In this document: piece by piece, positions 3,106-32,203 of the stretch
How positions within the stretch are numbered: the first letter of the stretch is position 1
Layout of the letters: each line of letters begins with the position of its first letter
DNA from: a virus
IMG/VR virus record: IMGVR_UViG_3300010165_000001
Location: 1-64,000 of that record
Strand: one strand, 5' to 3'
DNA: 64,000 bases
Translations under genes and position numbers: made by a program
The notes under the pieces: model-generated
The model's input: only the letters and a program-made list of their open reading frames with translations
What the model was told of the DNA's origin: nothing
Database searches by the model: none

Positions 3106-3312
3106 ATGGCTAGTAAAATAATGAAAAGAGTAAGGGAGAAGAAAGGTTATTCTGTTCGTTCTTTAGCAGATGAAATAGGTGTTAACTACTCTTCTATTTC
3201 TTTATGGGAGAATGGTAAACGTAAACCTAGAAATGCAAATGCAATTAAACTAGAAAAAATACTAGGTATGCCTTTACAAGAATTACTAAAGGAGGATACA
3301 AAAGATGACTAA
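3106..3312 (+). CDS. XRE-family helix-turn-helix protein
   Basis: YSVRSLADEIGVNYSSISLWENGKR is a classic Cro/C1-type HTH. Confidence 0.75.
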   Translation: MASKIMKRVREKKGYSVRSLADEIGVNYSSISLWENGKRKPRNANAIKLEKILGMPLQELLKEDTKDD

Positions 3313-3910
3313 CTCAGAAATATTAGAAGGATATTTAGATGAAGCTAGAGATAAAGTGGATACTTATGAACTTATGGAACTTAATGAAGTTGAAAGAGTT
3401 TTAGGTACAGAAAACTTTATGAAGCTTTATGAAACAATTGAAGACCATTTAACAATTGAAGAAAGACTACATGTTTATGGTTCATTGGATAAATTATTAA
3501 ATGCTAATAAAAGTGATTTTGTAAAATATGAAGAGGGTACAGTATATCGTAAACATTCACCTATAGAAGAGAAGGCAGAGTTCTATTCCTCAATATTGAG
3601 TGATAGTATTGGACAAGCAATTGAAGATATTCGATATAATCTTAAAAACACAGGAGAGACTGTAGTTATGAGTTCTATTATTGAATATATAGTCTTAGGT
3701 AGTGACTTAAGCGAAGAAGATTCTTTATACAGTACTGAAGTTATTAAGTATTTAAGAAAAAATAAAAATAACTTAAGTAAGATGTTAGATAACTTAAAAG
3801 TTATTGATGATAATGTTGAGAATGGTTATTACTTAGACATTAACTTCAACAAAGAGGAAGAGCCTAATGATAAAGAAATGTTAGAGATTTTAAAACTTAT
3901 CAATTTCTAG
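3305..3910 (+). CDS. hypothetical protein
   Basis: ORF; SD AAGGAGGA; overlaps previous stop. Confidence 0.7.
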   Translation: MTNSEILEGYLDEARDKVDTYELMELNEVERVLGTENFMKLYETIEDHLTIEERLHVYGSLDKLLNANKSDFVKYEEGTVYRKHSPIEEKAEFYSSILSDSIGQAIEDIRYNLKNTGETVVMSSIIEYIVLGSDLSEEDSLYSTEVIKYLRKNKNNLSKMLDNLKVIDDNVENGYYLDINFNKEEEPNDKEMLEILKLINF

Positions 3911-3922
3911 GAGGATTACCAT

Positions 3923-4117
3923 ATGTTAAAATGTTTGTATAGAGTAATTGTTGATGGTCGAGAAATGTTTGCGGTTGCTAAGAATGAAGATGAAGTTAAG
4001 AAACATTGTTTTGCTTTCTTTGATTATAATGATATAAAAGTGTATTTTTTAAATTACCAAGATAACGATAGTGAATTTCCTTATATTATTAATAGAGAGG
4101 ACTTCTTATATGCTTAA
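3923..4117 (+). CDS. hypothetical small protein
   Basis: ORF; SD TAGGAGGA. Confidence 0.65.
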   Translation: MLKCLYRVIVDGREMFAVAKNEDEVKKHCFAFFDYNDIKVYFLNYQDNDSEFPYIINREDFLYA

Positions 4118-4529
4118 ACTATATACAGATGGTGCAAGCTCATACAAGAGAGGTCTCTATGGCTCTGGATATGTAATTGTAGAAAACGACTCAGAAATCT
4201 ACAGTGCAAGTATTAAAGGAAAATACCCACAATTTGTTAAGTATAATAATGTTGCAGGTGAAATATTTGCTTGTCTTTATGGTGTTGAGAAGTGTATAGA
4301 ACTAGGTTATAAGTCTGTAGAAGTTTATGTAGATTATATTGGTTTGATTAAATGGCGTAGTGGTGCTTGGAGAGCTAAGAATGAATTAAGTCAAGCTTAT
4401 ATAAGTACAATGAGGCATCTAGAACAATATATTGATATAAACTTTAAAAAGGTGAAAGCACACTCAAAAGAATTAGGGGATAAATGGAATGAAAGGGCAG
4501 ATGACCTAGCAACAAGTTCAATCAACTAG
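4110..4529 (+). CDS. RNase H (RNase HI-like)
   Basis: YTDGAS..AGE..VDY..NERADDLA (DEDD pattern); internal ATG 4110 with AGAGAGGA SD preferred over track start 4071. Confidence 0.75.
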   Translation: MLKLYTDGASSYKRGLYGSGYVIVENDSEIYSASIKGKYPQFVKYNNVAGEIFACLYGVEKCIELGYKSVEVYVDYIGLIKWRSGAWRAKNELSQAYISTMRHLEQYIDINFKKVKAHSKELGDKWNERADDLATSSIN

Positions 4530-4539
4530 GAGTGGTAAT

Positions 4540-4686
4540 TTGGAATACGAGAACTTAGATATAGCTTTAGATTATATTAAAGGTAAAATACATGACCTAC
4601 AAATAGATAGTGAAGATGAGAAGAATAATGAACTTATTGATTCTTTAGAAGACTTATTATCATTTGTAGAACAAAATAGACAGTAA
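4540..4686 (+). CDS. hypothetical small acidic protein (48 aa, not in track)
   Basis: TTG start after AGGAGTGG; fills gap between RNase H and PhoH. Confidence 0.45.
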   Translation: MEYENLDIALDYIKGKIHDLQIDSEDEKNNELIDSLEDLLSFVEQNRQ

Positions 4687-4702
4687 GGGGATACTTGTAA
4701 AT

Positions 4703-5464
4703 ATGGCATACTTTGGAATTAGTGCAAAAAATGAAGAACAAAAATTAGCTTTGAGAGCTTTAGATAATGATAAACCTATAACAATTTTGACAGGTACTTC
4801 AGGAGTAGGTAAATCTTTATTAGCTCAAGCAGTTGGACTTGAAAAAGTTATAGAAACTAAAGAGTTTAAAAGGTTAATATATACTAGATTGCAAGTGGAT
4901 GTCGGGGCTGACAGAGGATTCCTACCAGGGAGTGATGGAGAGAAGTTATACCCTTATATCGCCCCCTTCTTAGATAATTTAGATGTTATGTCTTCTGAAA
5001 ATAGTAATATAAAAGATTATTTATTGTTTGAAGGTCAAGACGATAGTAAGAAAAAAGTTTTCTTTGATAGTATACAATCTATTCGAGGAAGGTCTTTAGA
5101 TGGATGGATTATTATAGATGAAGTTCAAAACTTAGATATACACACGATTACCGCTATAGCTACTAGGTTAAAAGCGGAAAATGCTAAGTTAATTCTGATG
5201 GGTAACTTTAGTCAAATTGATGATAAGAAATTAAGAAACCCTGAACAAAATGGTTTTTATCAATTACTAAAAGGTTTATATGAAAAAGACCCAGAACAAG
5301 AATTCTTTGACCATATTAATATGGTTCAAACACATAGACACCCTGTTGTAGATTTGATAGAAGATATTTTAAGGACAGATAAAAACGTAGACCCTGTATT
5401 CTATGAACTAGAGAACAGAGGAACATTAAAAGAATATAATAATAAATATGGTATAAAAGGTTAA
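4703..5464 (+). CDS. phoH: PhoH-like ATPase
   Basis: Walker A GTSGVGKS, Walker B IIDEVQNL, typical PhoH length. Confidence 0.85.
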   Translation: MAYFGISAKNEEQKLALRALDNDKPITILTGTSGVGKSLLAQAVGLEKVIETKEFKRLIYTRLQVDVGADRGFLPGSDGEKLYPYIAPFLDNLDVMSSENSNIKDYLLFEGQDDSKKKVFFDSIQSIRGRSLDGWIIIDEVQNLDIHTITAIATRLKAENAKLILMGNFSQIDDKKLRNPEQNGFYQLLKGLYEKDPEQEFFDHINMVQTHRHPVVDLIEDILRTDKNVDPVFYELENRGTLKEYNNKYGIKG

Positions 5465-8314: not shown

Positions 8315-8476
8315 ATGAAGAAAATAATAATTATACTATCAATTACAATACCACTTATTATATTAACGAAATATCTTATTCAAGAATTAAACTACTACTT
8401 AACAGCAAATGACGATATAGATTTACCAGGTTTCAACGAAATAGACCACAAACATTTAAATGGGGTTTTTAAATGA
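8315..8476 (+). CDS. small membrane protein (53 aa, not in track)
   Basis: MKKIIIILSITIPLIIL..; SD AAAGGTGAG; ATGA overlap with next gene. Confidence 0.5.
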   Translation: MKKIIIILSITIPLIILTKYLIQELNYYLTANDDIDLPGFNEIDHKHLNGVFK

Positions 8477-24413: not shown

Positions 24414-24806
24414 ATATTTCAAGAAAAATGTAATTCTAAAAATTTTACCACCAAAATTTTACCAGAAAAATATAAGCCCCAAGAGAGTGTGGGGTAGGTC
24501 TCACACAACCCACATGTTATGGCATATTATAACGGGGGTACTAAATTGTACACAACTCAATAAAAGATAATTAAAATAGAGATAAAATAATTACCTTTTT
24601 TTTATATTAATTATTTTATTCTTTAAGAAATTATTTTATTATTTTAAATTAATTTTTTTATATATTTTAATTATTCATCACAGACCGATTCAACCTCTAT
24701 TCTAAGGACAATAAATCTTTTAGGTACTATTTATCCTAAATAGATATGAAGTACAATGAGAGGGCTCTGTGTGGCTCTCATAATGAATAGAGAAGCGGAC
24801 AAAAAA

Positions 24807-24828
24807 AAGACTATCAATTGATAGTCTT
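24807..24828 (-). terminator. terminator (perfect 22-nt palindrome)
   Basis: AAGACTATCAATTGATAGTCTT followed by T8 in minus sense. Confidence 0.75.
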
Positions 24829-24903
24829 AAGGAATTTAACTAATTTTTCCAAGTCTTTAGTATTCTTCTTTAGTTTGTTTATCTCTTTATCTAATTTGTC
24901 CAT
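24814..24903 (-). CDS. 29-aa Lys-rich helical peptide (not in track)
   Basis: MDKLDKEINKLKKNTKDLEKLVKFLKTIN; SD GAGGAGG; stop inside terminator. Confidence 0.45.
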   Translation of the reverse strand: MDKLDKEINKLKKNTKDLEKLVKFLKTIN

Positions 24904-24946
24904 TGTATAGCCTCCTCAATGCTTACTATGTGCCTCTGTATATCTA

Positions 24947-25426
24947 TTATAGGTCTCTCTCTTCTATTATGATTTGAGCTACCAGTTCAACTGCTAAGCA
25001 TACAAAATTAATTTTATCTTGGTCTGTAGGTAATACCTCTACATCGTTCATACAGTCAAATATAAGCTCCTCTTGTTCCTCCTCGTCCATATCGTACCAA
25101 TCTTCATGAGTCTCTGCGAGTTGTGTTGCTTCGTCTTGCATGAGGTCTAGCATATCTTCATACTCCGTAAAGCTTGTGTTAATCTCACTATTTAATAACT
25201 CCATAAGCTCAACATTTATAATATCGTAAAAAGTATCATGTGTTAAGTCCTCCACGTATTCAAGTATAACCGCTTCAATATCGTCCTCATATCTGTTAAA
25301 GAAATCTACCACGTCTGAAGTATAAATAAGTTCCCCGATTGCTCCGCTTTGTACTCCGTAAGTTGCTACGTCTTCGATTGTGCTTTGTTCTTGTCCCTGT
25401 AAAAATTCTTTTATTGTGTTTGTCAT
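24947..25426 (-). CDS. highly acidic protein (candidate DNA mimic / anti-restriction)
   Basis: 159 aa, very rich in D/E; last gene of the early array; conserved GGGAATTGAT leader. Confidence 0.7.
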   Translation of the reverse strand: MTNTIKEFLQGQEQSTIEDVATYGVQSGAIGELIYTSDVVDFFNRYEDDIEAVILEYVEDLTHDTFYDIINVELMELLNSEINTSFTEYEDMLDLMQDEATQLAETHEDWYDMDEEEQEELIFDCMNDVEVLPTDQDKINFVCLAVELVAQIIIEERDL

Positions 25427-25431
25427 AATAA

Positions 25432-25509
25432 ATCAATTCCCTTCTTATTTGTTACACTAAGTATATCATGGTTACAAGTTACTGTCAATAGTTTTTTTAA
25501 ACTTTTTTA
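25432..25509. repeat. 78-bp promoter+leader cassette, copy 1
   Basis: Apparently identical to 25748-25825; holds UP tract, TTGACA (rc 25483-88), TATACT, leader to SD. Confidence 0.9.
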
Positions 25510-25743
25510 AACTAATTTCCAGTTGATATCTGAAATGTATTCCTCTAGGTCTTCCAAAGTTTCTGCAAATTTGATTGATTGTAGAGTATCAGAAGTTACC
25601 ACAACCGCTTCTGTGTCATGAATTTCATTGTCTAAGATATTATTGTCTATGTGGTCGATATACTCCCAAATTAGGGCGTGCTTTACGCTCTCAAGTGTTG
25701 CTATACTAATTACGATTTGGTTTTCTTGGTTTAATAATTTCAT
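25507..25743 (-). CDS. acidic small protein
   Basis: ATG 25743, 10 nt after GGGA; track TTG start 25752 rejected. Confidence 0.65.
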   Translation of the reverse strand: MKLLNQENQIVISIATLESVKHALIWEYIDHIDNNILDNEIHDTEAVVVTSDTLQSIKFAETLEDLEEYISDINWKLV

Positions 25744-25747
25744 TTGT

Positions 25748-25825
25748 ATCAATTCCCTTCTTATTTGTTACACTAAGTATATCATGGTTACAAGTTACTG
25801 TCAATAGTTTTTTTAAACTTTTTTA
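25748..25825. repeat. 78-bp promoter+leader cassette, copy 2
   Basis: See 25432-25509. Confidence 0.9.
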
Positions 25826-26033
25826 TTTCTTTTTTCTAGGTGTTTTGCTTCCTTAACTTGTTAATACAAGTATATCATGAAGCGGTTATTGTGTCAACAA
25901 TTTTTTAAAAGTTTTTTAACTTCTTTTTTTAAGTGTTCCGCTTCCTTACTACACTCTATATATTACAGTATAATGATATAAAAGTCAATAGATTTTTGAA
26001 ACTTTTTTAAATAAATTATTTTGAAGAAAGGTA

Positions 26034-26062
26034 TTGACAAACCGTAGGAATTATTATATAAT
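26034..26062 (+). promoter_or_regulatory. consensus sigma-A promoter on the plus strand with no ORF downstream
   Basis: TTGACA-17-TATAAT. Confidence 0.7.
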
Positions 26063-26213
26063 GGAAGTGGACGGTTATTTTTTTATAAAAAAGGACGGAC
26101 TCCCCCCGAAACCCCTTCTTTGGTCTTGGGCTCCTTAACCTTATATCTATATTATACTATGTATTGTAAGAATTGTCAACACTTTTTATAAACTTTTTTA
26201 ATTAATTTAAGTA

Positions 26214-26242
26214 TTGACAACCAGTAGCAAAATTGATATAAT
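26214..26242 (+). promoter_or_regulatory. consensus extended -10 promoter on the plus strand with no ORF downstream
   Basis: TTGACA-17-(TGa)TATAAT. Confidence 0.7.
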
Positions 26243-26248
26243 TAAGAT

Positions 26249-26398
26249 GATACCATAAAATACCTATAATTTTTTTATATAATATTATTTTTATACTAAA
26301 ATTATCGTTCACTTCATTATCTCAAAAATATTCACATTTGTCAAGCCCTAATTTAAAATAAAATAACCGCTTCAAGAATTTAATCCGAAGCGGTTTAT
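26249..26398 (+). ncRNA. candidate ~150-nt sRNA (promoter 26214 to hairpin 26365-26395)
   Basis: No ORF above 3 codons; contains the complement of the early-leader motif (26264-26283); inference only. Confidence 0.25.
26365..26395 (-). terminator. terminator hairpin using the GAAGCGGTT stem
   Basis: AACCGCTTC/GAAGCGGTT; minus sense followed by ATTTTATTTT. Confidence 0.7.
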
Positions 26399-26407
26399 AT
26401 AAATTTT

Positions 26408-26788
26408 TTATTTCATGATATTTAGTAATGTTGTATGTAATTCTTCAATATCTGATTGGTCTACAATGTACAATACACCGTTAATCTTGATGCTTATAGC
26501 TTCTTGTCCGTAAACTTCAATTAAACGTCTTACAATTCCTTTTAATTCAACTGTCATGAATTTTGCATTGTCTTGCATGTAGTACCATTCAAGATTTAAG
26601 TTGTTATCTTCCATGATACGTTTTTCATCTTCTGAATACCATTGACCTTTGATTTCTGTTATTGTACATCCGCCCGCTTCTATTGTGATACTATTTACAT
26701 ACTCTTGAATACGTTTGTCCGCAATTTCCACGCCGTTGTTATCCTCTTTAGGTATAATAATCTCAATTTTATTTTGTAGTTTAAACAT
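26408..26788 (-). CDS. hypothetical protein
   Basis: ATG 26788, 10 nt after AAGGA; earlier TTG/ATG are too close to the SD. Confidence 0.7.
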   Translation of the reverse strand: MFKLQNKIEIIIPKEDNNGVEIADKRIQEYVNSITIEAGGCTITEIKGQWYSEDEKRIMEDNNLNLEWYYMQDNAKFMTVELKGIVRRLIEVYGQEAISIKINGVLYIVDQSDIEELHTTLLNIMK

Positions 26789-26884
26789 TTTCATCAATTC
26801 CTTTTCTCTTTGATTTGTTAATACAAGTATATCATCTATATGCTAGATTGTCAACAGTTTTTTTAAACTTTTTTTTACTAGGTT

Positions 26885-26950
26885 GGAAGCGGTTTGACCG
26901 CTTCCCTTACCTTACAATTTAATAATAACATGCTAGGTCTTGAAAGTCAA
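26885..26950 (-). promoter_or_regulatory. orphan promoter + stem-loop unit
   Basis: TTGACT (rc 26945-50)-17-TATTAT, then GGAAGCGGT-ttg-ACCGCTTCC 26885-26905; no ORF before the next promoter. Confidence 0.55.
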
Positions 26951-26959
26951 GCCTTTTTA

Positions 26960-27211
26960 TTAAAAGTTTTCAATTTCTTTTTTAGTCATTTTATCATGAC
27001 CATGTTGCATAATAAATTCGTTCACATGTCTTGCAGTAGTTTGTGAGTAGTAACCAATTTCTACAATGTTATTGTTTTCATCTAATTCACAAACATCTGT
27101 GTTATAGCTTGTTAAAATCTTGTGACCGTTGTCCAATACGTCTACGACTGCTTTTCCGTAAAAACTTTTTTGTGTACTGTAAATGCTTTCTAATTTGTAT
27201 GTGTTATTCAT
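26960..27211 (-). CDS. hypothetical small protein
   Basis: ORF; AAGGAATTGAT leader. Confidence 0.7.
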   Translation of the reverse strand: MNNTYKLESIYSTQKSFYGKAVVDVLDNGHKILTSYNTDVCELDENNNIVEIGYYSQTTARHVNEFIMQHGHDKMTKKEIENF

Positions 27212-27310
27212 AATTAATCAATTCCTTTTCTGTTTTATTTGTTATCTTAATAATATCATGGTTTCAAGTTACTGTCAATAGTTTTTTTTAAACTTTTTTT
27301 ATTTAGGTTA

Positions 27311-27375
27311 GAAGCGGTTTGACCGCTTCCCTTACCTTACAATTTAATAATATCATGTAGTGCTTAAGTTGTCAA
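27311..27375 (-). promoter_or_regulatory. orphan promoter + stem-loop unit (second copy)
   Basis: TTGACA (rc 27370-75)-17-TATTAT, then GAAGCGGT-ttg-ACCGCTTC 27311-27329; ~70 bp similar to 26885-26950. Confidence 0.55.
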
Positions 27376-27378
27376 CAC

Positions 27379-27510
27379 TTATTTTGAATATTTTACAATT
27401 TTATTTGCTTTTAGAAATGTAACATCTTGACGGTAGTTTTTTAATTCTTCTGCAAATCTTTCATTATTTTTCATTCCGATTAAGTTTAAAGTTGTTGTAA
27501 TTTTTTTCAT
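27379..27510 (-). CDS. 43-aa basic peptide (not in track)
   Basis: MKKITTTLNLIGMKNNERFAEELKNYRQDVTFLKANKIVKYSK; AAGGAATTGAT leader and own promoter (rc -35 27572-77). Confidence 0.45.
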   Translation of the reverse strand: MKKITTTLNLIGMKNNERFAEELKNYRQDVTFLKANKIVKYSK

Positions 27511-27580
27511 TTTTCATCAATTCCTTTTCTGTTTGATTTGTTACCTTAATATTAACACGTTGTTTCTAGGTTGTCAATAG

Positions 27581-27727
27581 TTATCTAATAAAAATATTTA
27601 TATTATCTTGAATTCTGATAAGATAATCAATTGTAACAACAATTCCAGTAGTACCGAATAAAGTAACTAGCTTGTCTGTCAGTGGTGTAGATTTATATTT
27701 TTTATTATTGAATTTAAATTTTATCAT
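27581..27727 (-). CDS. 48-aa peptide (not in track)
   Basis: SD AGGAGGT 8 nt upstream; own promoter (rc -35 27784-89). Confidence 0.55.
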   Translation of the reverse strand: MIKFKFNNKKYKSTPLTDKLVTLFGTTGIVVTIDYLIRIQDNINIFIR

Positions 27728-27792
27728 TTTGTGTTACCTCCTAATTAATTTGTATCTAAATTATAACATACAGTAAATAAAACTGTCAAACA

Positions 27793-27867
27793 TTAATTTT
27801 TATTTTTTTCTTCCATGTAACCATAAATAAAAGCACTCATCATCACAAAACCAAATATAAATATCAT
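27793..27867 (-). CDS. 24-aa hydrophobic peptide (not in track)
   Basis: MIFIFGFVMMSAFIYGYMEEKNKN; SD AAGGAG; own promoter (rc -35 27920-25). Confidence 0.3.
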   Translation of the reverse strand: MIFIFGFVMMSAFIYGYMEEKNKN

Positions 27868-28114
27868 TTCTTTCAACTCCTTATCTTGTATCTAAACTAT
27901 AACATATAATACTAAATAAAGTCAAACATTAATTTTAAGCCCTAGAGAGCAAAGAGAAGTCCATTCTGTATACATTCAATAATAATTAGGATAAATACAT
28001 CATATAATAGAAGAAACTAAATAAACACACTCCAAAGTACCCTGTATAAGATAATACAATGAAGCGGTTAAAATAGAGCATAAAAAAATAATTTAAAAAA
28101 GTTTTAAAAACCTA

Positions 28115-28143
28115 TTGCAATTTATATCAAACTGTAGTATCAT
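28115..28143 (+). promoter_or_regulatory. plus-strand promoter with UP tract, no ORF downstream
   Basis: TTGCAA-17-TATCAT preceded by AAAAAAGTTTTAAAAACCTA. Confidence 0.6.
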
Positions 28144-28149
28144 TATAAG

Positions 28150-28225
28150 TGAAGTAAGAAAGAGGAGACCAGCCTGATAACCTCTATAAACCTCGGATAG
28201 GTTGGGGAGAAGGCACCCCCTAAAC
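28150..28225 (+). ncRNA. candidate structured sRNA (three adjacent GC-rich hairpins)
   Basis: AGAGG/CCTCT 28161-85, AACCT/AGGTT 28189-203, GGGG/CCCC 28204-19 in AT-rich DNA; strand uncertain because an antisense promoter sits at 28356. Confidence 0.25.
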
Positions 28226-28386
28226 TCATTTAAGTAGTAGACAACTCTATAAATTATTTATATAATTCCCCTAGAATACAATTGAACACAATATAAAAAC
28301 TTTTTTATATATAAAAAAGTCATCTCACTTTAATTATACACCTATTTTAACCACTTGTCAATACCCAATTTTACACTATTTTGTTA

Positions 28387-28415
28387 TTGACATTCATGCC
28401 GAATTTTGATATAAT
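28387..28415 (+). promoter_or_regulatory. consensus extended -10 promoter on the plus strand, no ORF downstream
   Basis: TTGACA-17-(TGa)TATAAT. Confidence 0.7.
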
Positions 28416-28954
28416 GGAATTGATGACCTAAAATACCTATAATTTTTTTATATAATACTATTTGAATAGAAGCGGATGCAATATATTAATTACTGAATAA
28501 GGTTGCCCGATTCATATCTGTAGCAAATCCTTTAGTCAATTAATACGTTACCATATTAAAGTAAACTATATAATTTTTTTTATATAATAACAAATGAATA
28601 GAAGAGGTCATAAACTAATAACTATTGAATAATGTTATATACAACTATATAATTTTTTTATATAATAACAAATGAATACAACCGCTTCAAATACTATAAG
28701 AATATTATACAATTGATTACAAGCCATTAGCCAACGAATACAATTCATTAACTATTCATTAGTACACAATATAATATCATTAGCATTGATTAGCCCACAA
28801 TTAGATAGTAAAATTATAGAATAAAATAAGTATTGAAGCGGACACAATACAATAACTATTGAATAATGTTTACTACAATAAGTTAAAAAGTTTAATAGGT
28901 GGGTAGGCAATATAAATATAATGTTATCTTATGGGGTGGTTAAAGAATTCCCAG

Positions 28955-29194
28955 GTTCTAATATATTTTAGTTATTCTATATTTTAGTTATTCTATAAAT
29001 TATTTATTCTATAATAAAGTTATCCTATAATAAAATTATACAATATAAAGGTTAAATAGTTCCTGTAGTATCTTATAATAAAGTTATTCTATAAATAAGT
29101 TAATCAATAAATAAATTAATCAATAAATAAATTAATCAATATTAAGGTTATTCAATTTTTCTTTTATTCTATACAGTAATTAATATATAATTTT
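28955..29194. repeat. degenerate 16-bp tandem array, ~15 units (consensus GTTATTCTATAAATAA)
   Basis: Units in register every 16 bp from 28955 or 28971 to 29178 or 29194, including three near-perfect TTAATCAATAAATAAA units at 29100-29147. Confidence 0.85.
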
Positions 29195-29221
29195 TTTATA
29201 TAAATTTAAACAAATAAAAAA

Positions 29222-29243
29222 CCCTAGGAATCTAATCCCAGGG
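29222..29243 (-). terminator. rho-independent terminator
   Basis: CCCTGGGA/TCCTAGGG stem (one G-U) then T6 in minus sense. Confidence 0.7.
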
Positions 29244-29267
29244 AATTCTATAATTTTTTTATATTAT

Positions 29268-29504
29268 TTAAATATATTGTTTTAATTCTTGCATATTATG
29301 AGAAACTTTTTTACTAACATAATAATTAGATAATTTTTTTATAATTTCCCACTGTTCGTTTATTTCATCTACAATAATAAATTCGTTATTATTTAATTCA
29401 TATACTATAGGTTCATCATAAACATATAATAAATTTTCCAATTCATTTTCATTTGGTTCAGTTGTAATCAATTCATTTTCTAATACATAATAATTTTTTG
29501 TCAT
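29268..29504 (-). CDS. hypothetical small acidic protein
   Basis: ORF; AAAGGATTGAT leader preceded by motif copy. Confidence 0.7.
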   Translation of the reverse strand: MTKNYYVLENELITTEPNENELENLLYVYDEPIVYELNNNEFIIVDEINEQWEIIKKLSNYYVSKKVSHNMQELKQYI

Positions 29505-29533
29505 TTTAAATCAATCCTTTTTTTATAATTTTT

Positions 29534-29800
29534 TTATATTTCTAACATTGCATTTAAATCTTCTAACACTTCAATAATATAATTATGAAATAATATAGGT
29601 GTAACATTAGAATTTTTATATAACTTTTCTTCATCTGTTATAATTGCATTATTTAATGCTATGCTATCTTGAATTTGAAAATAATTATTTAATTCTTTTA
29701 ATTCATTTAAAGTTACATCATAATTGAGTGCAATTCTATTTATTTCTTCATCAGTTCCAAAAAGTACAATTTTAATAATTTCATTTAATTTTTTATTCAT
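29534..29800 (-). CDS. hypothetical small protein
   Basis: Internal ATG 29800 after GGGA SD; track start 29932 would overlap the upstream gene and its hairpin. Confidence 0.6.
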   Translation of the reverse strand: MNKKLNEIIKIVLFGTDEEINRIALNYDVTLNELKELNNYFQIQDSIALNNAIITDEEKLYKNSNVTPILFHNYIIEVLEDLNAMLEI

Positions 29801-29849
29801 AATATCATATCCCTTTTTTATAAATTTTTTATTTAATTCAGAAGCGGTT

Positions 29850-30128
29850 TTAATTCTTAACCGCTTCATTATGTCTTGCTTCTGCTTCTGCATGAGTATC
29901 AGGGAAATCGAACGTGCGGACTGTTTTGCCAAATTCTGATGTTACAGTCGTTTTAGTGTGGTAGTAACCAAAGATAGTATATTTTTTATTTGTACGTCTC
30001 TCACCTTTCCAACGTTCATCAATAAAGCTAGTTTTGAATTGGTCATGTGTTAAGTACATTTCTATTGTTTCACCGTCTAAATTTGTGTAAGTCATTTTAA
30101 TTGCTTTCATTTGGTTTAAGTTTGTCAT
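29850..30128 (-). CDS. hypothetical small protein
   Basis: ATG 30128 after AGGATTTGAT; stop lies in GAAGCGGTT hairpin. Confidence 0.65.
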   Translation of the reverse strand: MTNLNQMKAIKMTYTNLDGETIEMYLTHDQFKTSFIDERWKGERRTNKKYTIFGYYHTKTTVTSEFGKTVRTFDFPDTHAEAEARHNEAVKN

Positions 30129-30309
30129 AATAATCAAATCCTATTCTATAATTTTTTTATATAATTCTAATATTCGTTATTTGCTAGGTGGTTTGTCTTA
30201 TTTGTTATCTTAATAATAACATGTATCTTGTAAGCTGTCAATACTTTTCTTTAACTTTTTTAAAAAGTTTTTTTAAGATGTGCTTGATTACCTTACAAAT
30301 ACAATTTTA

Positions 30310-30408
30310 CTACAGTTTGTTTAGTGAGTCAATAGCTTTTTTAAATTCTTTTTGCAATTTCTCAATTTCTTTTTTATCTTGCTTGAGTTTCTTAAGTAGT
30401 AAACTCAT
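30310..30408 (-). CDS. 32-aa Lys-rich helical peptide (not in track)
   Basis: MSLLLKKLKQDKKEIEKLQKEFKKAIDSLNKL; GGGGG SD; own promoter (rc -35 30515-20). Confidence 0.4.
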   Translation of the reverse strand: MSLLLKKLKQDKKEIEKLQKEFKKAIDSLNKL

Positions 30409-30576
30409 AATATATTGCCCCCAATTCTATAATTTTTTTTTATTTAATTTCCTTATTTGCTTAAGTTCCTTTTTGATTACCTTACAAATACTATTATATC
30501 AAGTTATAAGATAATTGCAATAGTTTTTTTAAATTTGGTAGTGCTTTAACGTGGTAAAAGGTTAAAGCACTTTTTT

Positions 30577-30744
30577 TTATTTTGCTACAATCCCATCAAC
30601 TAAAGTTAAACCATTTATTTTTTCAATTATTTTAGTTACGGTAATATTATATTGTGTATCATTTAATTCACTTTCTATATAATCCCCTACAACTAAATTA
30701 TTTTTTTGTACTTTTACGTTTTTTATAATTTGAACAGTTTTCAT
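30577..30744 (-). CDS. 55-aa protein (not in track)
   Basis: SD TAGGAGAA; followed by an 11-bp-stem hairpin. Confidence 0.55.
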   Translation of the reverse strand: MKTVQIIKNVKVQKNNLVVGDYIESELNDTQYNITVTKIIEKINGLTLVDGIVAK

Positions 30745-30786
30745 ATTTTATTTTCTCCTATTCTATAATTTTTTTATTTAAATATA

Positions 30787-31089
30787 TTAATCAAGAATTT
30801 CAATTTGATTAATTATTTTTTGATTTCTAATGATATATAACATTCTATTAATATATAAAAATGTTAAACCGTATTTATGAAACATCGTTCCATATTCTTG
30901 TGGTAACTGTTTTTTAAAAAACTTTTGTTTCTGATAAAACTCAACGTAACCCTGTTTGGTTTGTATAAGTAACTGCAAATATTCGCCTTGTGGTTTACCA
31001 TATACGATATAATTTTCATTACGTCTGTCTATAGCACCATATAAACCAAATACCCCTATTATATTTTGTATATCTTTATTCTTTTTCAA
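30787..31089 (-). CDS. hypothetical protein
   Basis: TTG start after GGAAGGTGA; ~230-nt leader from promoter with rc -35 at 31331-36. Confidence 0.6.
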   Translation of the reverse strand: MKKNKDIQNIIGVFGLYGAIDRRNENYIVYGKPQGEYLQLLIQTKQGYVEFYQKQKFFKKQLPQEYGTMFHKYGLTFLYINRMLYIIRNQKIINQIEILD

Positions 31090-31405
31090 TTAAATCACCT
31101 TCCGTATTTTTTAATAAGTTATCTATTTGTTATCTGTCTAATACTATACATGATATTAATATAAAAAACAACCCCCCAAATTAAAGAAATTTTTTTAGGT
31201 CTTAATTTTTGTTTTATATGGAAGAAACTGGAAATTAAGCAAAAAATAAATAGTATAATTTTTTTATATAATTCTGTATATAAGACAGACAGACCCCTCT
31301 AATTATTATGATAAAGGATAATACCCGATTTGTCAATACACAATTTTACACTTTTTTTAAATTGTCATAAAGTGTAAAATTTCTCATTTAATTTATTTAA
31401 AAGTA

Positions 31406-31433
31406 TTGAAATTATATATCAATCTGCTATAAT
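31406..31433 (+). promoter_or_regulatory. plus-strand promoter for 31492..31773
   Basis: TTGAAA-16-TATAAT, then the shared initial transcribed sequence AGTATTTGTAAGGTAATCAA. Confidence 0.6.
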
Positions 31434-31491
31434 AGTATTTGTAAGGTAATCAAACAACCTTAACAAATTAAATGAAAAGGATTGATATATA

Positions 31492-31773
31492 ATGAAAATT
31501 TACAATGAGGACAACACACAATTAATCGAAGTAATAGACGGATTAGACAACGGTCTAGCAATTAGCCAAACATTTAGAAATAGCACATATGAATTCTATA
31601 AAGAAAATAATAATATTCTTGTAAGATTAGACAGTGAAACAATTGGGCATATTGAGAGAATTCCATATGGCACATATGAACAGTTAAGATTTGAAGATTG
31701 GGACACTGAAAAAATTCTAATAATTGAATGGTTGGATGAGTTAGATGCTTATATTTTTGAATATGAAGTTTAA
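31492..31773 (+). CDS. hypothetical small protein (only plus-strand gene in the early region)
   Basis: ORF; AAAGGATTGAT leader as in the minus-strand genes. Confidence 0.65.
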   Translation: MKIYNEDNTQLIEVIDGLDNGLAISQTFRNSTYEFYKENNNILVRLDSETIGHIERIPYGTYEQLRFEDWDTEKILIIEWLDELDAYIFEYEV

Positions 31774-31794
31774 TATATAAAAAAATTATAGAAT

Positions 31795-31826
31795 ACACTG
31801 GGAATAATATTCCTGGTGTATTTTTT
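31795..31826 (+). terminator. rho-independent terminator
   Basis: ACACTGGGA/TCCTGGTGT stem (G-U pairs) then ATTTTTT. Confidence 0.7.
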
Positions 31827-31868
31827 ATGTTAATTAAATTTTTTTATAGGGCGATATTTCTTCATTCC

Positions 31869-32140
31869 TACTTATGCTTTTTACGATTTGATAAAAGTTA
31901 GAATATACTTATGCTTTTTACGTTTTCAATTTACTTCTAAATATGAATTGGAAATACTAGAAACATACTTAGGCTTTTTTACGATTGGACAAAACCTCAT
32001 TCCTACTTGTCTTTTTTACGTTTTGATATTTCTTTATTCATACTTATGATTTTTACTCTTACAGAGACACTACAGAGTGGTCTCCTTGGACTTCATTTCA
32101 TTTTAGGATTAATCCTACCTTCTTTATTCATACTTGTCTA
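31869..32140. repeat. six degenerate TACTTRKSTTTTTACG-type repeats
   Basis: Copies start near 31869, 31906, 31966, 32004, 32041, 32131. Confidence 0.6.
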
Positions 32141-32179
32141 AAACAAGCTCCTATTATCTCTCTGATTAAACATAAAAAA

Positions 32180-32203
32180 AACTACCCAACTTAATGAGTA
32201 GTT
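32180..32203 (-). terminator. rho-independent terminator
   Basis: AACTACTCA/TGGGTAGTT stem then T8 in minus sense. Confidence 0.7.

Follow-up and report, generated by a model that had tools for sequence, protein, structure and literature searches.

A repeated A/T-only sequence at gene and module boundaries in the long terminal repeat of a Kayvirus-like Staphylococcus phage

In phage T4, RegB cuts within the GGAG of the Shine-Dalgarno (SD) motif, and the binding site of RegA covers the start codon. The attC sites of integrons are imperfect palindromes, which are recombined as folded single strands by the tyrosine recombinase IntI. Lambdoid phages reportedly carry boundary or linker sequences at their module junctions, a view connected with the modular theory of Susskind and Botstein and with the work of Clark and colleagues from 2001. 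In T4-like phages, the promoter-early stem-loop (PeSL) combines a strong sigma-70 promoter with a stem-loop terminator (Arbiol et al. 2010, PMC2839356; Comeau et al. 2014, PMC4122927).

The window analyzed here, a stretch of 64,000 nucleotides, comes from a myophage of Staphylococcus that is Kayvirus-like (Twortvirinae). Multiple copies of an A/T-only sequence of about 23 nt, called M in the following, lie in the central part of the phage's long terminal repeat (LTR).

The repeat and its distribution

In the mRNA sense, M reads ATTAT-ATAAAAAAATTATA-nAAT, and its 14-nt core is TATAATTTTTTTAT. The repetition noticed in the initial annotation was confirmed: each listed copy was found within 1-3 nt of the position given, those near 29816 and 30425 as weaker matches (A6T3 for the first; A9, with divergence in the 5' half, for the second), and three copies had been missed (26398-26411, 29329 and 28246-28266). 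M is far more common than in shuffled sequences. When up to one mismatch was allowed, the core occurred 15 times in the window, compared with a mean of 2.3 (maximum 7) in block shuffles of local composition, and a 21-mer with up to three mismatches gave 12 matches versus 0.15 expected, a number reached in 0 of 100 dinucleotide shuffles. A mismatch-tolerant scan found no copy in the rest of the 64 kb, in agreement with the earlier statement, and all copies lie at 26265-31790, within 5.5 kb (26.2-31.8 kb). Beyond about 23 nt, the information content across 114 different flank contexts is at background, which makes M a discrete element. Its sole G is not conserved, position +14 being T in 46% of the copies. 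M holds two direct ATTATA/TATAAT hexamers, 13 bp apart, and is non-palindromic, without dyad symmetry.

M is restricted to the LTR and is spread over genera. Phage K has nine copies per LTR, compared with three weak one-mismatch matches in its 131-kb unique region, and in phage K and its relatives the LTR end that is first to enter the cell has one copy within its final ~80 bp. Further copies were found in Baoshanvirus, in Sepunavirus SEP1 (eight within 5.4 kb) and in several relatives without classification, with a single copy in Twort; the exact sequence is kept over four genera and more than 100 contexts.

Several established element types were rejected as descriptions of M. It is not a promoter, as it has no conserved -35 element, is unlike the late -10 TGTTATATTA, and coincides with no transcription start site (TSS) listed for phage K; nor is it a terminator or a member of an Rfam family, as no Rfam match was obtained. 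Structure prediction revealed no stable or conserved RNA structure in M.

Placement relative to genes, terminators and promoters

In all cases, M is co-oriented with local transcription; all copies described below are on the minus strand, except for the single inverted copy already noted, which belongs to the sole inverted gene. M occupies the seams between leader and SD-ORF, between ORF and SD-ORF, between ORF and terminator, and between terminator and promoter, and it is also found 22 nt (21-23) downstream of antisense-directed consensus promoters. The earlier description of a motif fused to the SD motifs of unrelated early genes was therefore correct but incomplete, since M borders every type of module and not ORFs alone.

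At gene starts, 3-7 nt separate M from the SD motif 3' to it; M contains no GGAG, and its end is 18-21 nt from the start codon in at least 12 unrelated ORFs. The five SD fusions described before were all correct (ATG at 30128, 30744, 30408, 29504 and 29800), and the flanked genes, as claimed, lack mutual homology. A perfect 21-mer copy (30143-30165) separates the leader of promoter 30241-30213 from the SD motif of ORF C, the A9 variant (30424-30446) separates the leader of promoter 30520-30493 from that of a 32-aa ORF (30310-30408), and at 30760-30782 a copy follows the ORF 30787-31089 stop codon and precedes the SD motif of ORF 30577-30744. Similarly, the copy at 29520-29542 lies past the ORF B stop codon and before the SD motif of ORF A, and the A6T3 variant (29815-29837) is found between the SD motif of ORF B and a hairpin past the ORF C stop codon. 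This GAAGCGG hairpin (29841-29867, minus strand) is a second conserved joint, and its 5' arm codes for EAVKN*, the C-terminus of ORF C. In phage K, the published promoters at 3586(-), 3709(+) and 4219(+) put M inside 5'UTRs. The copy at 31250-31272, about 30 nt into the transcript of promoter 31336-31308, has no adjoining SD motif, and an M-like sequence (29325-29347, one mismatch, at 29329) inside ORF A is kept in PSU5, J51 and phiSA_BS2. Only a subset of the early genes bears M.

Both previously described cases of M between a stop codon and a terminator hold: the copy at 29245-29267 lies between the ORF A stop codon (29268) and the terminator 29243-29222, and the inverted copy (31772-31794, plus strand) between the stop codon of the plus-strand ORF 31492-31773 and the terminator 31795-31819. 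A third is provided by the copy at 26394-26416 (one mismatch, 26398-26411), which covers the stop codon of ORF 26408-26797 and abuts the terminator hairpin 26365-26395 of that ORF; read in the opposite direction, it is the U-rich tail following this hairpin, and its orthologue is an exact copy in EW13 and WV. Just downstream of the intrinsic terminator 29222-29243 (minus strand) lies another copy (29182-29204), and this M-terminator-M module is present in 131 Staphylococcus phage records.

Two antisense-directed consensus promoters on the plus strand fire into M. The promoter at 26214-26242 (TTGACA-17-TATAAT) is followed, 22 nt past its -10, by the copy at 26261-26283 (exact core 26265-26278), which lies between a convergent promoter pair, 37 nt past the -10 of the minus-strand promoter 26344-26316. 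The promoter at 28387-28415, which is conserved in phiSA_BS2, is followed at the same distance by the copy at 28434-28456, at the beginning of an ORF-free region (28380-29200) into which this promoter fires. The region holds tandem repeats and four M copies, among them the T8 variant at 28565-28588 and the copy at 28644-28666, both within a 78-nt repeat. It has unannotated counterparts of 78-91% identity in phiSA_BS1/2, PSU4, Golestan101 and JDF86, and a 16-bp tandem array adjacent to M repeats the half-site-like TTCTATAAT. A degenerate copy at 28244-28266 (two mismatches, 28246-28266) is flanked by the convergent promoters 28115-28143 (+) and 28361-28333 (-) and is homologous to a double copy in phage K (5013-5042). 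In 11 of 121 unique M contexts, a TTGACA-17-TATAAT promoter has its -10 end 21-23 nt upstream of anti-M (10 perfect 12/12 matches and one 11/12), whereas any promoter of at least 10/12 within 15-30 nt is found at 2.7% of random LTR positions. M thus occupies a fixed +16 position relative to the antisense promoters, an arrangement kept in PSU5, EW5, WV, phiSA_BS2 and L010; among the modules found by the promoter-spacing scan, phage K has no clean promoter-22-nt-anti-M module.

Cassette exchange and possible roles of M

Alignment with relatives places the deduced crossovers inside M. Three ORF cassettes bounded by M, namely C (29850-30128), B (29534-29800) and A (29268-29504), occupy 29268-30128 on the minus strand and were assigned to PHROG families of unknown function or to none. 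Their order is C-B-A in the window, C-A-B in PSU5 and C-B in EW5, M is the only sequence common to the joints, and every combination of the 3' ends of C, B and A with the 5' ends of B, A and the terminator is seen across the three phages. The alternative idea of the initial annotation, a DNA linker for cassette recombination, is thus directly supported, as relatives differ in cassette order or presence with the joints inside M. Promoter modules, terminator modules and ORFs are each bracketed by M, and one conserved antisense-promoter module leads into three unrelated downstream sequences, the switch occurring directly past M. Comparison of K gp011 with ORF C shows a replaced ORF in a slot with retained M and TIR, and K gp009 and 31492-31773 are unrelated ORFs, yet M and the terminator are 92% identical. 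The linkage of the 35 nt upstream with the 35 nt downstream of M is intact in only about half of the inter-phage pairs, but it breaks about equally often 35 nt downstream, past the shared TIR, and therefore M is not the sole joint. HSP endpoints over the LTR are weakly enriched near M (17 versus 10.1, P of about 0.05), and at orthologous joints M shows a modest excess of conservation over its flanks (91% versus 80%, 96% versus 89%, and 95% versus 98%). With 23 bp, M is close to the minimum length for homologous recombination.

The best explanation, which we put forward tentatively, is that M is a transcribed module-boundary ("connector") sequence specific to the central LTR of Kayvirus-like Twortvirinae. 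M lies at the seams of functional modules in a single orientation relative to transcription, and since each module has this direct repeat on both sides, homologous exchange at M could insert, delete, replace or permute modules while leaving promoter, SD motif, ORF and terminator unbroken. Partners in the exchange might be co-infecting phages, the two copies of the LTR or stretches of a concatemer. The conserved TIR and hairpin sequences beside M are further exchange sites, and exchange would presumably be driven by general homologous recombination or copy-choice without a dedicated recombinase. In RNA, M may be only a generic unstructured A/U platform directly 5' of the SD motif and not a specific operator, and its conservation would reflect repeated exchange together with this generic role. 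The outcome would be a natural cassette system for fast-evolving host-takeover genes. Nevertheless, a pure recombination scar need not keep an exact sequence, and conservation of this kind is usually the sign of a sequence-specific first-order function; the fixed distances of 22 nt from perfect antisense promoters and of 18-21 nt to start codons also hint at a function beyond homology.

One such function, an RNA operator, was preferred in the initial annotation, but we consider it unlikely. M would be a specific cis-element for a phage translational repressor, a sequence-specific endoribonuclease or a host RNase (e.g., RNase Y/J) that acts on single-stranded A/U-rich RNA, binding or cleavage just 5' of SD motifs and terminator hairpins would co-ordinate translation or stability of a subset of early mRNAs, and recombination at M would be a by-product of its repetition. 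M is indeed invariably in sense orientation in early transcripts, within 5'UTRs and intercistronic regions; the constant spacing to the start codons, the identical core across genera and the predicted largely unpaired state are consistent with such an element, and sites before SD motifs and 3' hairpins would fit a processing that detaches protective 5' and 3' structures. However, no computation specifically supports the operator, and it is disfavored by the many copies without a translation start, around and past terminators and between ORF-less convergent promoters. In addition, the only G is variable, just a subset of early genes is marked, the 10 LTR proteins tested contain no RegA/RegB-like, nuclease or RNA-binding domain, the PHROG families are of unknown function, and the published promoter and terminator tables of phage K show neither coverage steps nor an unpredicted TSS at M.

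It is rather less probable that M is the target of phage antisense RNAs whose 5' ends complement it. The promoter at 26214-26242 would produce an RNA of about 150-170 nt ending at the hairpin 26365-26395 and the U-rich anti-M, that at 28387-28415 a long non-coding RNA containing anti-M several times, and pairing beside the SD motif or terminator of several mRNAs would block ribosomes or make RNase III substrates. The enrichment and conservation of the promoter-M arrangement and the conserved, unannotated ORF-free region past the second promoter argue for this possibility, as do predicted duplexes of -10 to -22 kcal/mol and the reported small RNA snc002 (K 5022-5067, minus), which is on the antisense strand and overlaps the phage K double copy. 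The complementarity itself is not evidence, since both strands carry the same DNA element. Furthermore, the duplexes are weak and A/U-only, the authors of the phage K study did not find a target of snc002 in the phage, the clean module is absent from phage K itself, sense promoters are only about 75 bp away, so that cis-antisense pairs or transcriptional-interference devices are equally possible, and an inverted M-bounded promoter cassette would also be explained by a connector. A DNA-level protein-binding or structural site appears improbable, the most so of these proposals. It might be a roadblock between promoter and ORF, at which an early-gene shut-off protein of the phage halts RNA polymerase, a sigma-A-dependent pause element with two TATAAT hexamers in the antisense non-template strand at +16, or an easily melted element for recombination-dependent replication. 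The two direct hexamers, the fixed +16 position, the adjacent tandem array of half-site-like repeats and the copy near the first-entering LTR end are in line with it. But a site in double-stranded DNA would not need strict co-orientation with transcription, M has no dyad symmetry and does not resemble the consensus of Kayvirus late promoters, the LTR proteins tested yielded no candidate DNA-binding protein, and convergent transcription would not favor unwinding.

Comparison with known systems

The shuffling cassette PeSL of T4-like phages is the closest analogue. Like PeSL, M is a short conserved non-coding repeat of a large virulent myovirus, concentrated where the genome is hyperplastic, expressed early and rich in ORFans, is placed between the stop codon of one gene and the SD motif of the next, and contains the joints of insertion, deletion and replacement differences between relatives. 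M nevertheless lacks the defining parts of PeSL: it is neither promoter nor terminator but a 23-nt, A/T-only, non-palindromic sequence inside the transcript, downstream of the promoter, and it brackets promoters and terminators as well.

The arrangement resembles integron arrays in that mostly promoterless small ORFs in one orientation are each bounded by the same repeated site, with a promoter and a first site upstream, and in that cassette order and content differ among relatives. Unlike attC, M lacks dyad symmetry, the LTR proteins tested include no evident integrase, and exchange at M is presumably homologous. With the RegB and RegA sites, M shares the property of being a short sequence that recurs in a virulent myovirus where translation of unrelated early genes begins, and through which these genes could be shut off together after transcription; unlike these sites, it lies 5' of the SD motif and is also found away from starts. 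The boundary sequences of lambdoid phages are, like M, short, conserved, located at gene or module boundaries and proposed to focus homologous exchange. However, they are diverse and locus-specific, whereas M is one sequence, with about 10-24 copies in each LTR, always in the same orientation, and is shared across genera.

Extent and distribution of the repeat M

M, an A/T-rich repeat of ~23 nt in the long terminal repeat (LTR), is strongly clustered in the window. A 21-mer search with ≤3 mismatches returned 12 matches against 0.15 expected, and the 14-nt core, with ≤1 mismatch, has 15 copies against a mean of 2.3 and a maximum of 7 in block shuffles. All 15 core copies lie within 26265-31790, which bears out the claim of the initial annotation that copies are confined to one cluster. 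The coordinates given there were each correct to a few bases and all listed copies are real, two of them (29816 and 30425) being weaker variants, but the list lacked three further copies, at 26398, at 29329 and, in degenerate form, at 28246. The five fusions of M to Shine-Dalgarno (SD) sites, the two cases of M between a stop codon and a terminator, the single inverted copy and the lack of relationship among the flanking genes were all recovered as described.

When 114 distinct contexts from 12 loci were aligned, the information content was high over ATTAT-ATAAAAAAATTATA-nAAT (mRNA sense) and fell to background on either side, so that M is a discrete element of ~23 nt and not the tip of a longer homology. 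It consists of A and T except for one non-conserved G, and is built as a direct repeat, ATTATA-N7-ATTATA, without dyad symmetry.

The proposed scan of a complete genome and of relatives showed that M is LTR-confined in phage K, with nine copies per LTR (3152-5042 and 8407) and only three one-mismatch matches in the 131-kb unique part. Multiple copies are also present in PSU5, EW5, EW13, WV, Baoshanvirus J51, phiSA_BS2 (~24 copies within 6 kb) and Sepunavirus SEP1 (8 copies within 5.4 kb), and there is a single occurrence in Twort. Exact-match searches of IMG/VR and of bacterial genomes, one for each of 185,579 species, gave, among the matches listed, scattered single chance hits outside Twortvirinae-like contigs; on these listed matches, a host-derived or general bacterial element was rejected. 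The M string is absent from the searched literature, to which Łobocka et al. 2012 (Adv Virus Res) did not belong; nor is it mentioned in the transcriptome papers on Kayvirus and Herelleviridae that were searched.

Megablast of window 26.0-32.2 kb matched Staphylococcus Herelleviridae (Twortvirinae) exclusively (282 records), in fragments over the terminal-repeat-encoded 'Tre' genes, and no record covered more than 40% of it; the closest of all phage records searched is PSU5, with 92% identity across 40% of 26000-32200 in five pieces. Since coverage of these 6.2 kb by any deposited phage stays at or below 40%, the window LTR is a combination of cassettes absent from the searched collection, each piece of which is known elsewhere. 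Comparison with the phage K LTR by tblastx placed its start at ~35.2 kb and its end at ~24.2 kb of the window, in reversed orientation, and the M cluster thus lies within the central half of the LTR. In Kayvirus-type phages the LTR is the host-takeover region and the earliest to be expressed (phage K/Kayvirus transcriptome literature); the genes around M in the window LTR are small, lie on the minus strand and are of unknown function.

Placement of M relative to genes and signals

Seven kinds of placement can be distinguished in the mRNA sense. M is found in 5' leaders ahead of the SD motif (30147, 30428 and, farther upstream in its leader, 31254), with sigma-A promoters 21-52 nt upstream of M; between the stop codon of one ORF and the SD motif of the next (30764, 29819, 29524); after a stop codon and ahead of a terminator hairpin (29249, 31777, 26398); immediately past a terminator (29186), as part of an M-terminator-M module that 131 phage records contain; between convergent promoters that enclose no ORF (26265, 28246); as a repeated unit in an ORF-free region that is conserved but unannotated (28438, 28569, 28648); and, in phage K and several relatives (not clearly in the window), ~70 bp from the end of the LTR that is first to enter the cell. 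In phage K, the promoters published for gp009, gp010 and gp011 confirm the location in early 5'UTRs. Wherever an ORF follows, the end of M is 18-21 nt from the start codon, a spacing that applies to at least 12 ORF families, unrelated to one another and differing in their SD motifs, and 3-7 nt from the SD motif itself. Inverted genes carry their M copies in inverted orientation as well (window 31777; phage K 3152 and 3520).

Two further locations should be noted. At 8407-8420 in phage K, M lies beside poly-G tracts, at most ~80 bp from the right LTR end, and likewise in PSU5, EW5, EW13, WV and SEP1; the right LTR end of phage 812 is ejected first (2026 cryo-EM study). No clear orthologue of this copy was found in the window, where a match with two mismatches lies at 24648 in the other orientation. 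In addition, an M-like copy at 29329-29342 lies in frame inside ORF A (29268-29504, minus strand, 78 aa) and is conserved at the corresponding position in PSU5, J51 and phiSA_BS2. The 80-nt piece that comes after this copy in J51 follows a segment that does not cluster with the window's upstream part of ORF A, an arrangement that may reflect in-ORF exchange yielding chimeric proteins.

Several conventional roles can be dismissed. Neither TATAAT hexamer of M has a conserved -35 at 16-18 nt, in either orientation, and the RNA-seq promoter tables of phage K contain no transcription start site or coverage step at M, which rules out a sigma-A promoter. The Kayvirus late promoter is an extended -10 motif, TGTTATATTA, without a -35 (Kornienko 2020); of its 10 positions M matches 7 at most, and in phage K it is early genes that follow M, and with this difference in consensus a late promoter is ruled out as well. 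No self-complementarity or hairpin was found in M, which folds weakly and is predicted to be mostly unpaired in seven transcript contexts, and Rfam 15 covariance models run on 23.5-33.5 kb gave just one sub-threshold chance hit, so that an intrinsic terminator or structured RNA is excluded; the terminator hairpins are separate modules adjoining M. At the stop-M-hairpin sites M could serve as the U-tract for termination in the opposite direction, which is convincing only at 26365-26411.

Exchange of modules at M

The best-supported conclusion is that M is a transcribed connector at module boundaries where LTR modules have been exchanged, together with the adjoining hairpin sequences and the conserved sequence directly downstream of M (TIR). 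Ten LTRs were cut at M and the pieces clustered. On the minus strand of the window the order is ORF C (29850-30128), ORF B (29534-29800), ORF A and terminator, in PSU5 it is C, A, B and terminator, and in EW5 and EW13 C, B and terminator, a C-homologous ORF not having been identified in EW13 or WV. In blastn comparison with PSU5, three blocks abut or overlap exactly at M copies and differ in order. At six types of joint (C/B, C/A, B/A, A/B, A/terminator and B/terminator), the common sequence is M plus a few flanking A/T bases. This reordering, with joints in M, supports the fallback proposal of the initial annotation that the repeat is a recombination linker.

Promoter and terminator modules are likewise bracketed by M, and in a conserved module consisting of an antisense promoter, 22 nt and M, three unrelated sequences are joined directly after M. 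Phage K gp011 and ORF C have promoter, leader, M, SD motif and ATGACAAAC in common, as well as a 3' hairpin encoding EAVKN*, while their bodies are unrelated. Phage K gp009 and window ORF 31492-31773 have the 3' M and terminator in common (92% identity), the ORFs not being homologous; the inverted window gene was rejected as a homologue of TreI or K gp009.

M is not the only joint. For pairs of M copies from different phages, similarity of the 35 nt upstream of M was accompanied by similarity of the 35 nt downstream in 56%, and the reverse held in 49%; linkage was lost about equally often 35 nt further downstream, past the shared TIR. Across the whole LTR, HSP endpoints near M are weakly enriched (17 versus 10.1, P~0.05), and with this weak support and the adjacent TIR as an equally frequent joint, M was not retained as the dominant breakpoint. 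At joints anchored on the flanks alone, M is modestly more conserved than its neighbours, an excess too modest for strong purifying selection on M relative to the flanks, which was rejected. Other repeated elements, namely promoters, leaders and hairpins, serve as joints as well. The weak endpoint enrichment and the joints at TIR and hairpins indicate that the central LTR is a mosaic in which variable ORFs alternate with short, conserved pieces of regulatory sequence; of these pieces, M is the shortest and has the most copies and the widest distribution.

Two other repeated elements were observed. The heptamer GAAGCGG/CCGCTTC (24792-29867 and 34839) is nearly LTR-exclusive (19 of 20 window occurrences) and belongs to conserved hairpins in leaders and behind ORFs; one of these (29841-29867) encodes the C-terminal EAVKN* of the unrelated ORF C and K gp011, and is thus a second recombination joint, reaching into coding sequence. 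A second portable expression module, which lacks M (25432-25509, 25748-25825, 26798-26875, 27222-27299 and 27511-27582), comprises an UP element, TTGACA-17-TATACT or TATTAT and a ~40-nt leader ending in AAAAGGAATTGATGAAAATG; it is repeated ahead of other unrelated tre genes, two copies being 100% identical across 78 nt.

Possible functions of M and comparison with known systems

As its first-order function, M is tentatively viewed as a generic A/U-rich spacer before the SD motif that also provides homology for exchange; this ranks first among the options, if somewhat short of an even chance. More specific functions are kept under consideration because of the identity of the core across genera and the two fixed spacings. 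Next in rank, and unlikely, is a specific site for an RNA-binding protein or for cleavage. The initial annotation had preferred such an RNA operator, following the logic of RegA/RegB, and M indeed lies 5' of the SD motif in early transcripts; however, ten LTR proteins contained no RegA/RegB-like, nuclease or RNA-binding Pfam domain, no RegA/RegB-type or other RNA-binding protein was found beside M, and no start site or coverage step coincides with it in the phage K tables. A DNA-level site is the least probable option.

Ranked between these two, and doubtful, is the possibility that M is the target of antisense RNAs from consensus promoters. In 11 of 121 unique M contexts, a TTGACA-17-TATAAT promoter is directed against the early genes (ten perfect 12/12, one 11/12), its -10 ending 21-23 nt before the complement of M (anti-M), whereas 2.7% of random LTR positions have any promoter of ≥10/12 at 15-30 nt. 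Two such consensus promoters fire toward M in the window, at 26214-26242 and 28387-28415 (plus strand), each with a sense promoter facing it ~75 bp off. From the former, a ~150-170-nt RNA is predicted that starts with anti-M and stops at hairpin 26365-26395, with a second anti-M as U-rich tail; from the latter, transcription would run into ORF-free repeats. The small RNA snc002 of phage K (5022-5067, antisense strand) overlaps a double M copy (phage K transcriptome literature), and predicted M/anti-M duplexes have energies of -10 to -22 kcal/mol. The promoters at fixed spacing, snc002 and the duplexes keep this model alive, but M and anti-M are complementary by their very nature, and an inverted promoter cassette with M at its borders is accounted for just as well by the connector model. 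In an extended version, which is similarly doubtful, the LTR would be a self-contained antisense network, in which small and long non-coding RNAs from perfect-consensus antisense promoters, with 5' ends or repeats complementary to M, would pair immediately 5' of the SD motif and terminator hairpin of a subset of host-takeover mRNAs, leading to translational block or RNase III cleavage and a timed shut-off, with sense M RNAs from the facing promoters acting as sponges.

The ORF-free parts of the LTR have further features. Three face-to-face pairs of near-perfect sigma-A promoters, 26034-26062(+)/26179-26151(-), 26214-26242(+)/26344-26316(-) and 28115-28143(+)/28361-28333(-), have no ORF between or after them and would give overlapping, complementary short RNAs. 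The first pair encloses a G+C-rich hairpin and terminator (26097-26114); the arrangement is kept in relatives and agrees with the LTR small RNAs reported for phage K. The ~800-bp region 28380-29200 is conserved, at 78-91% identity and without annotation, in phiSA_BS1/2, PSU4, Golestan101 and JDF86. Its repeats comprise a 16-bp tandem array of TATAATAAAGTTATTC (~11.5 copies, 28962-29156), one of 78 nt (28564-28722) and one of 31 nt (28707-28801), and the region could be transcribed from the promoter at 28387-28415 as a long non-coding RNA, or act as DNA in the manner of iterons. Another ORF-free stretch, between terminators 31795-31819 and 32180-32203, contains at 31840-32056 a ~17-nt unit (TACTTATGCTTTTTACG and variants) in four to five copies, spaced at ~37-100 bp.

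Phage therapy against Staphylococcus aureus relies mainly on Kayvirus-type phages (K, 812, ISP, Sb-1 and relatives). The genes of their terminal repeats, expressed before all others, have a presumed role in host takeover, but they differ from isolate to isolate and almost none has a known function. One connector sequence on either side of promoters, ORFs and terminators accounts for the free remodelling of the LTR, and for engineering, M sites offer natural, tolerated points for the insertion or exchange of payload genes. Should M prove to act as an RNA operator or as an antisense target as well, the host-takeover genes marked by it would make up a regulon.

Comparison with known systems sets M apart from several of them. 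T4 RegB cleaves at GGAG within the SD motif and the RegA site overlaps the start codon, whereas M lies upstream of both. Integron attC sites are imperfect palindromes (R''-L''...L'-R') able to fold, and act with the IntI integrase, in contrast to the direct repeat M; a recombinase domain was not found among the ten LTR proteins tested. The closest likeness is to the PeSL elements of T4-like phages: both are intergenic, lie between the upstream stop codon and the downstream SD motif and are concentrated in a variable early region (for M the central LTR, in the window and phage K), and in both the joints of indels, replacements and permutations fall in the element, as in the orders C-B-A, C-A-B and C-B. 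Recombination between nearby PeSL copies yields encapsidated mini-circles. However, a PeSL contains a sigma-70-type early promoter (-35, -10 and upstream A/T tract) and a stem-loop that terminates or attenuates transcription, while M has neither, its promoters lying upstream and its hairpins forming separate adjoining modules. As both PeSL hallmarks were tested and are absent, M works like PeSL cassettes without being a member of the PeSL family, and the concept is thereby extended from T4-like phages of Gram-negative hosts to an unrelated family of myoviruses with Gram-positive hosts, with a structurally different element.
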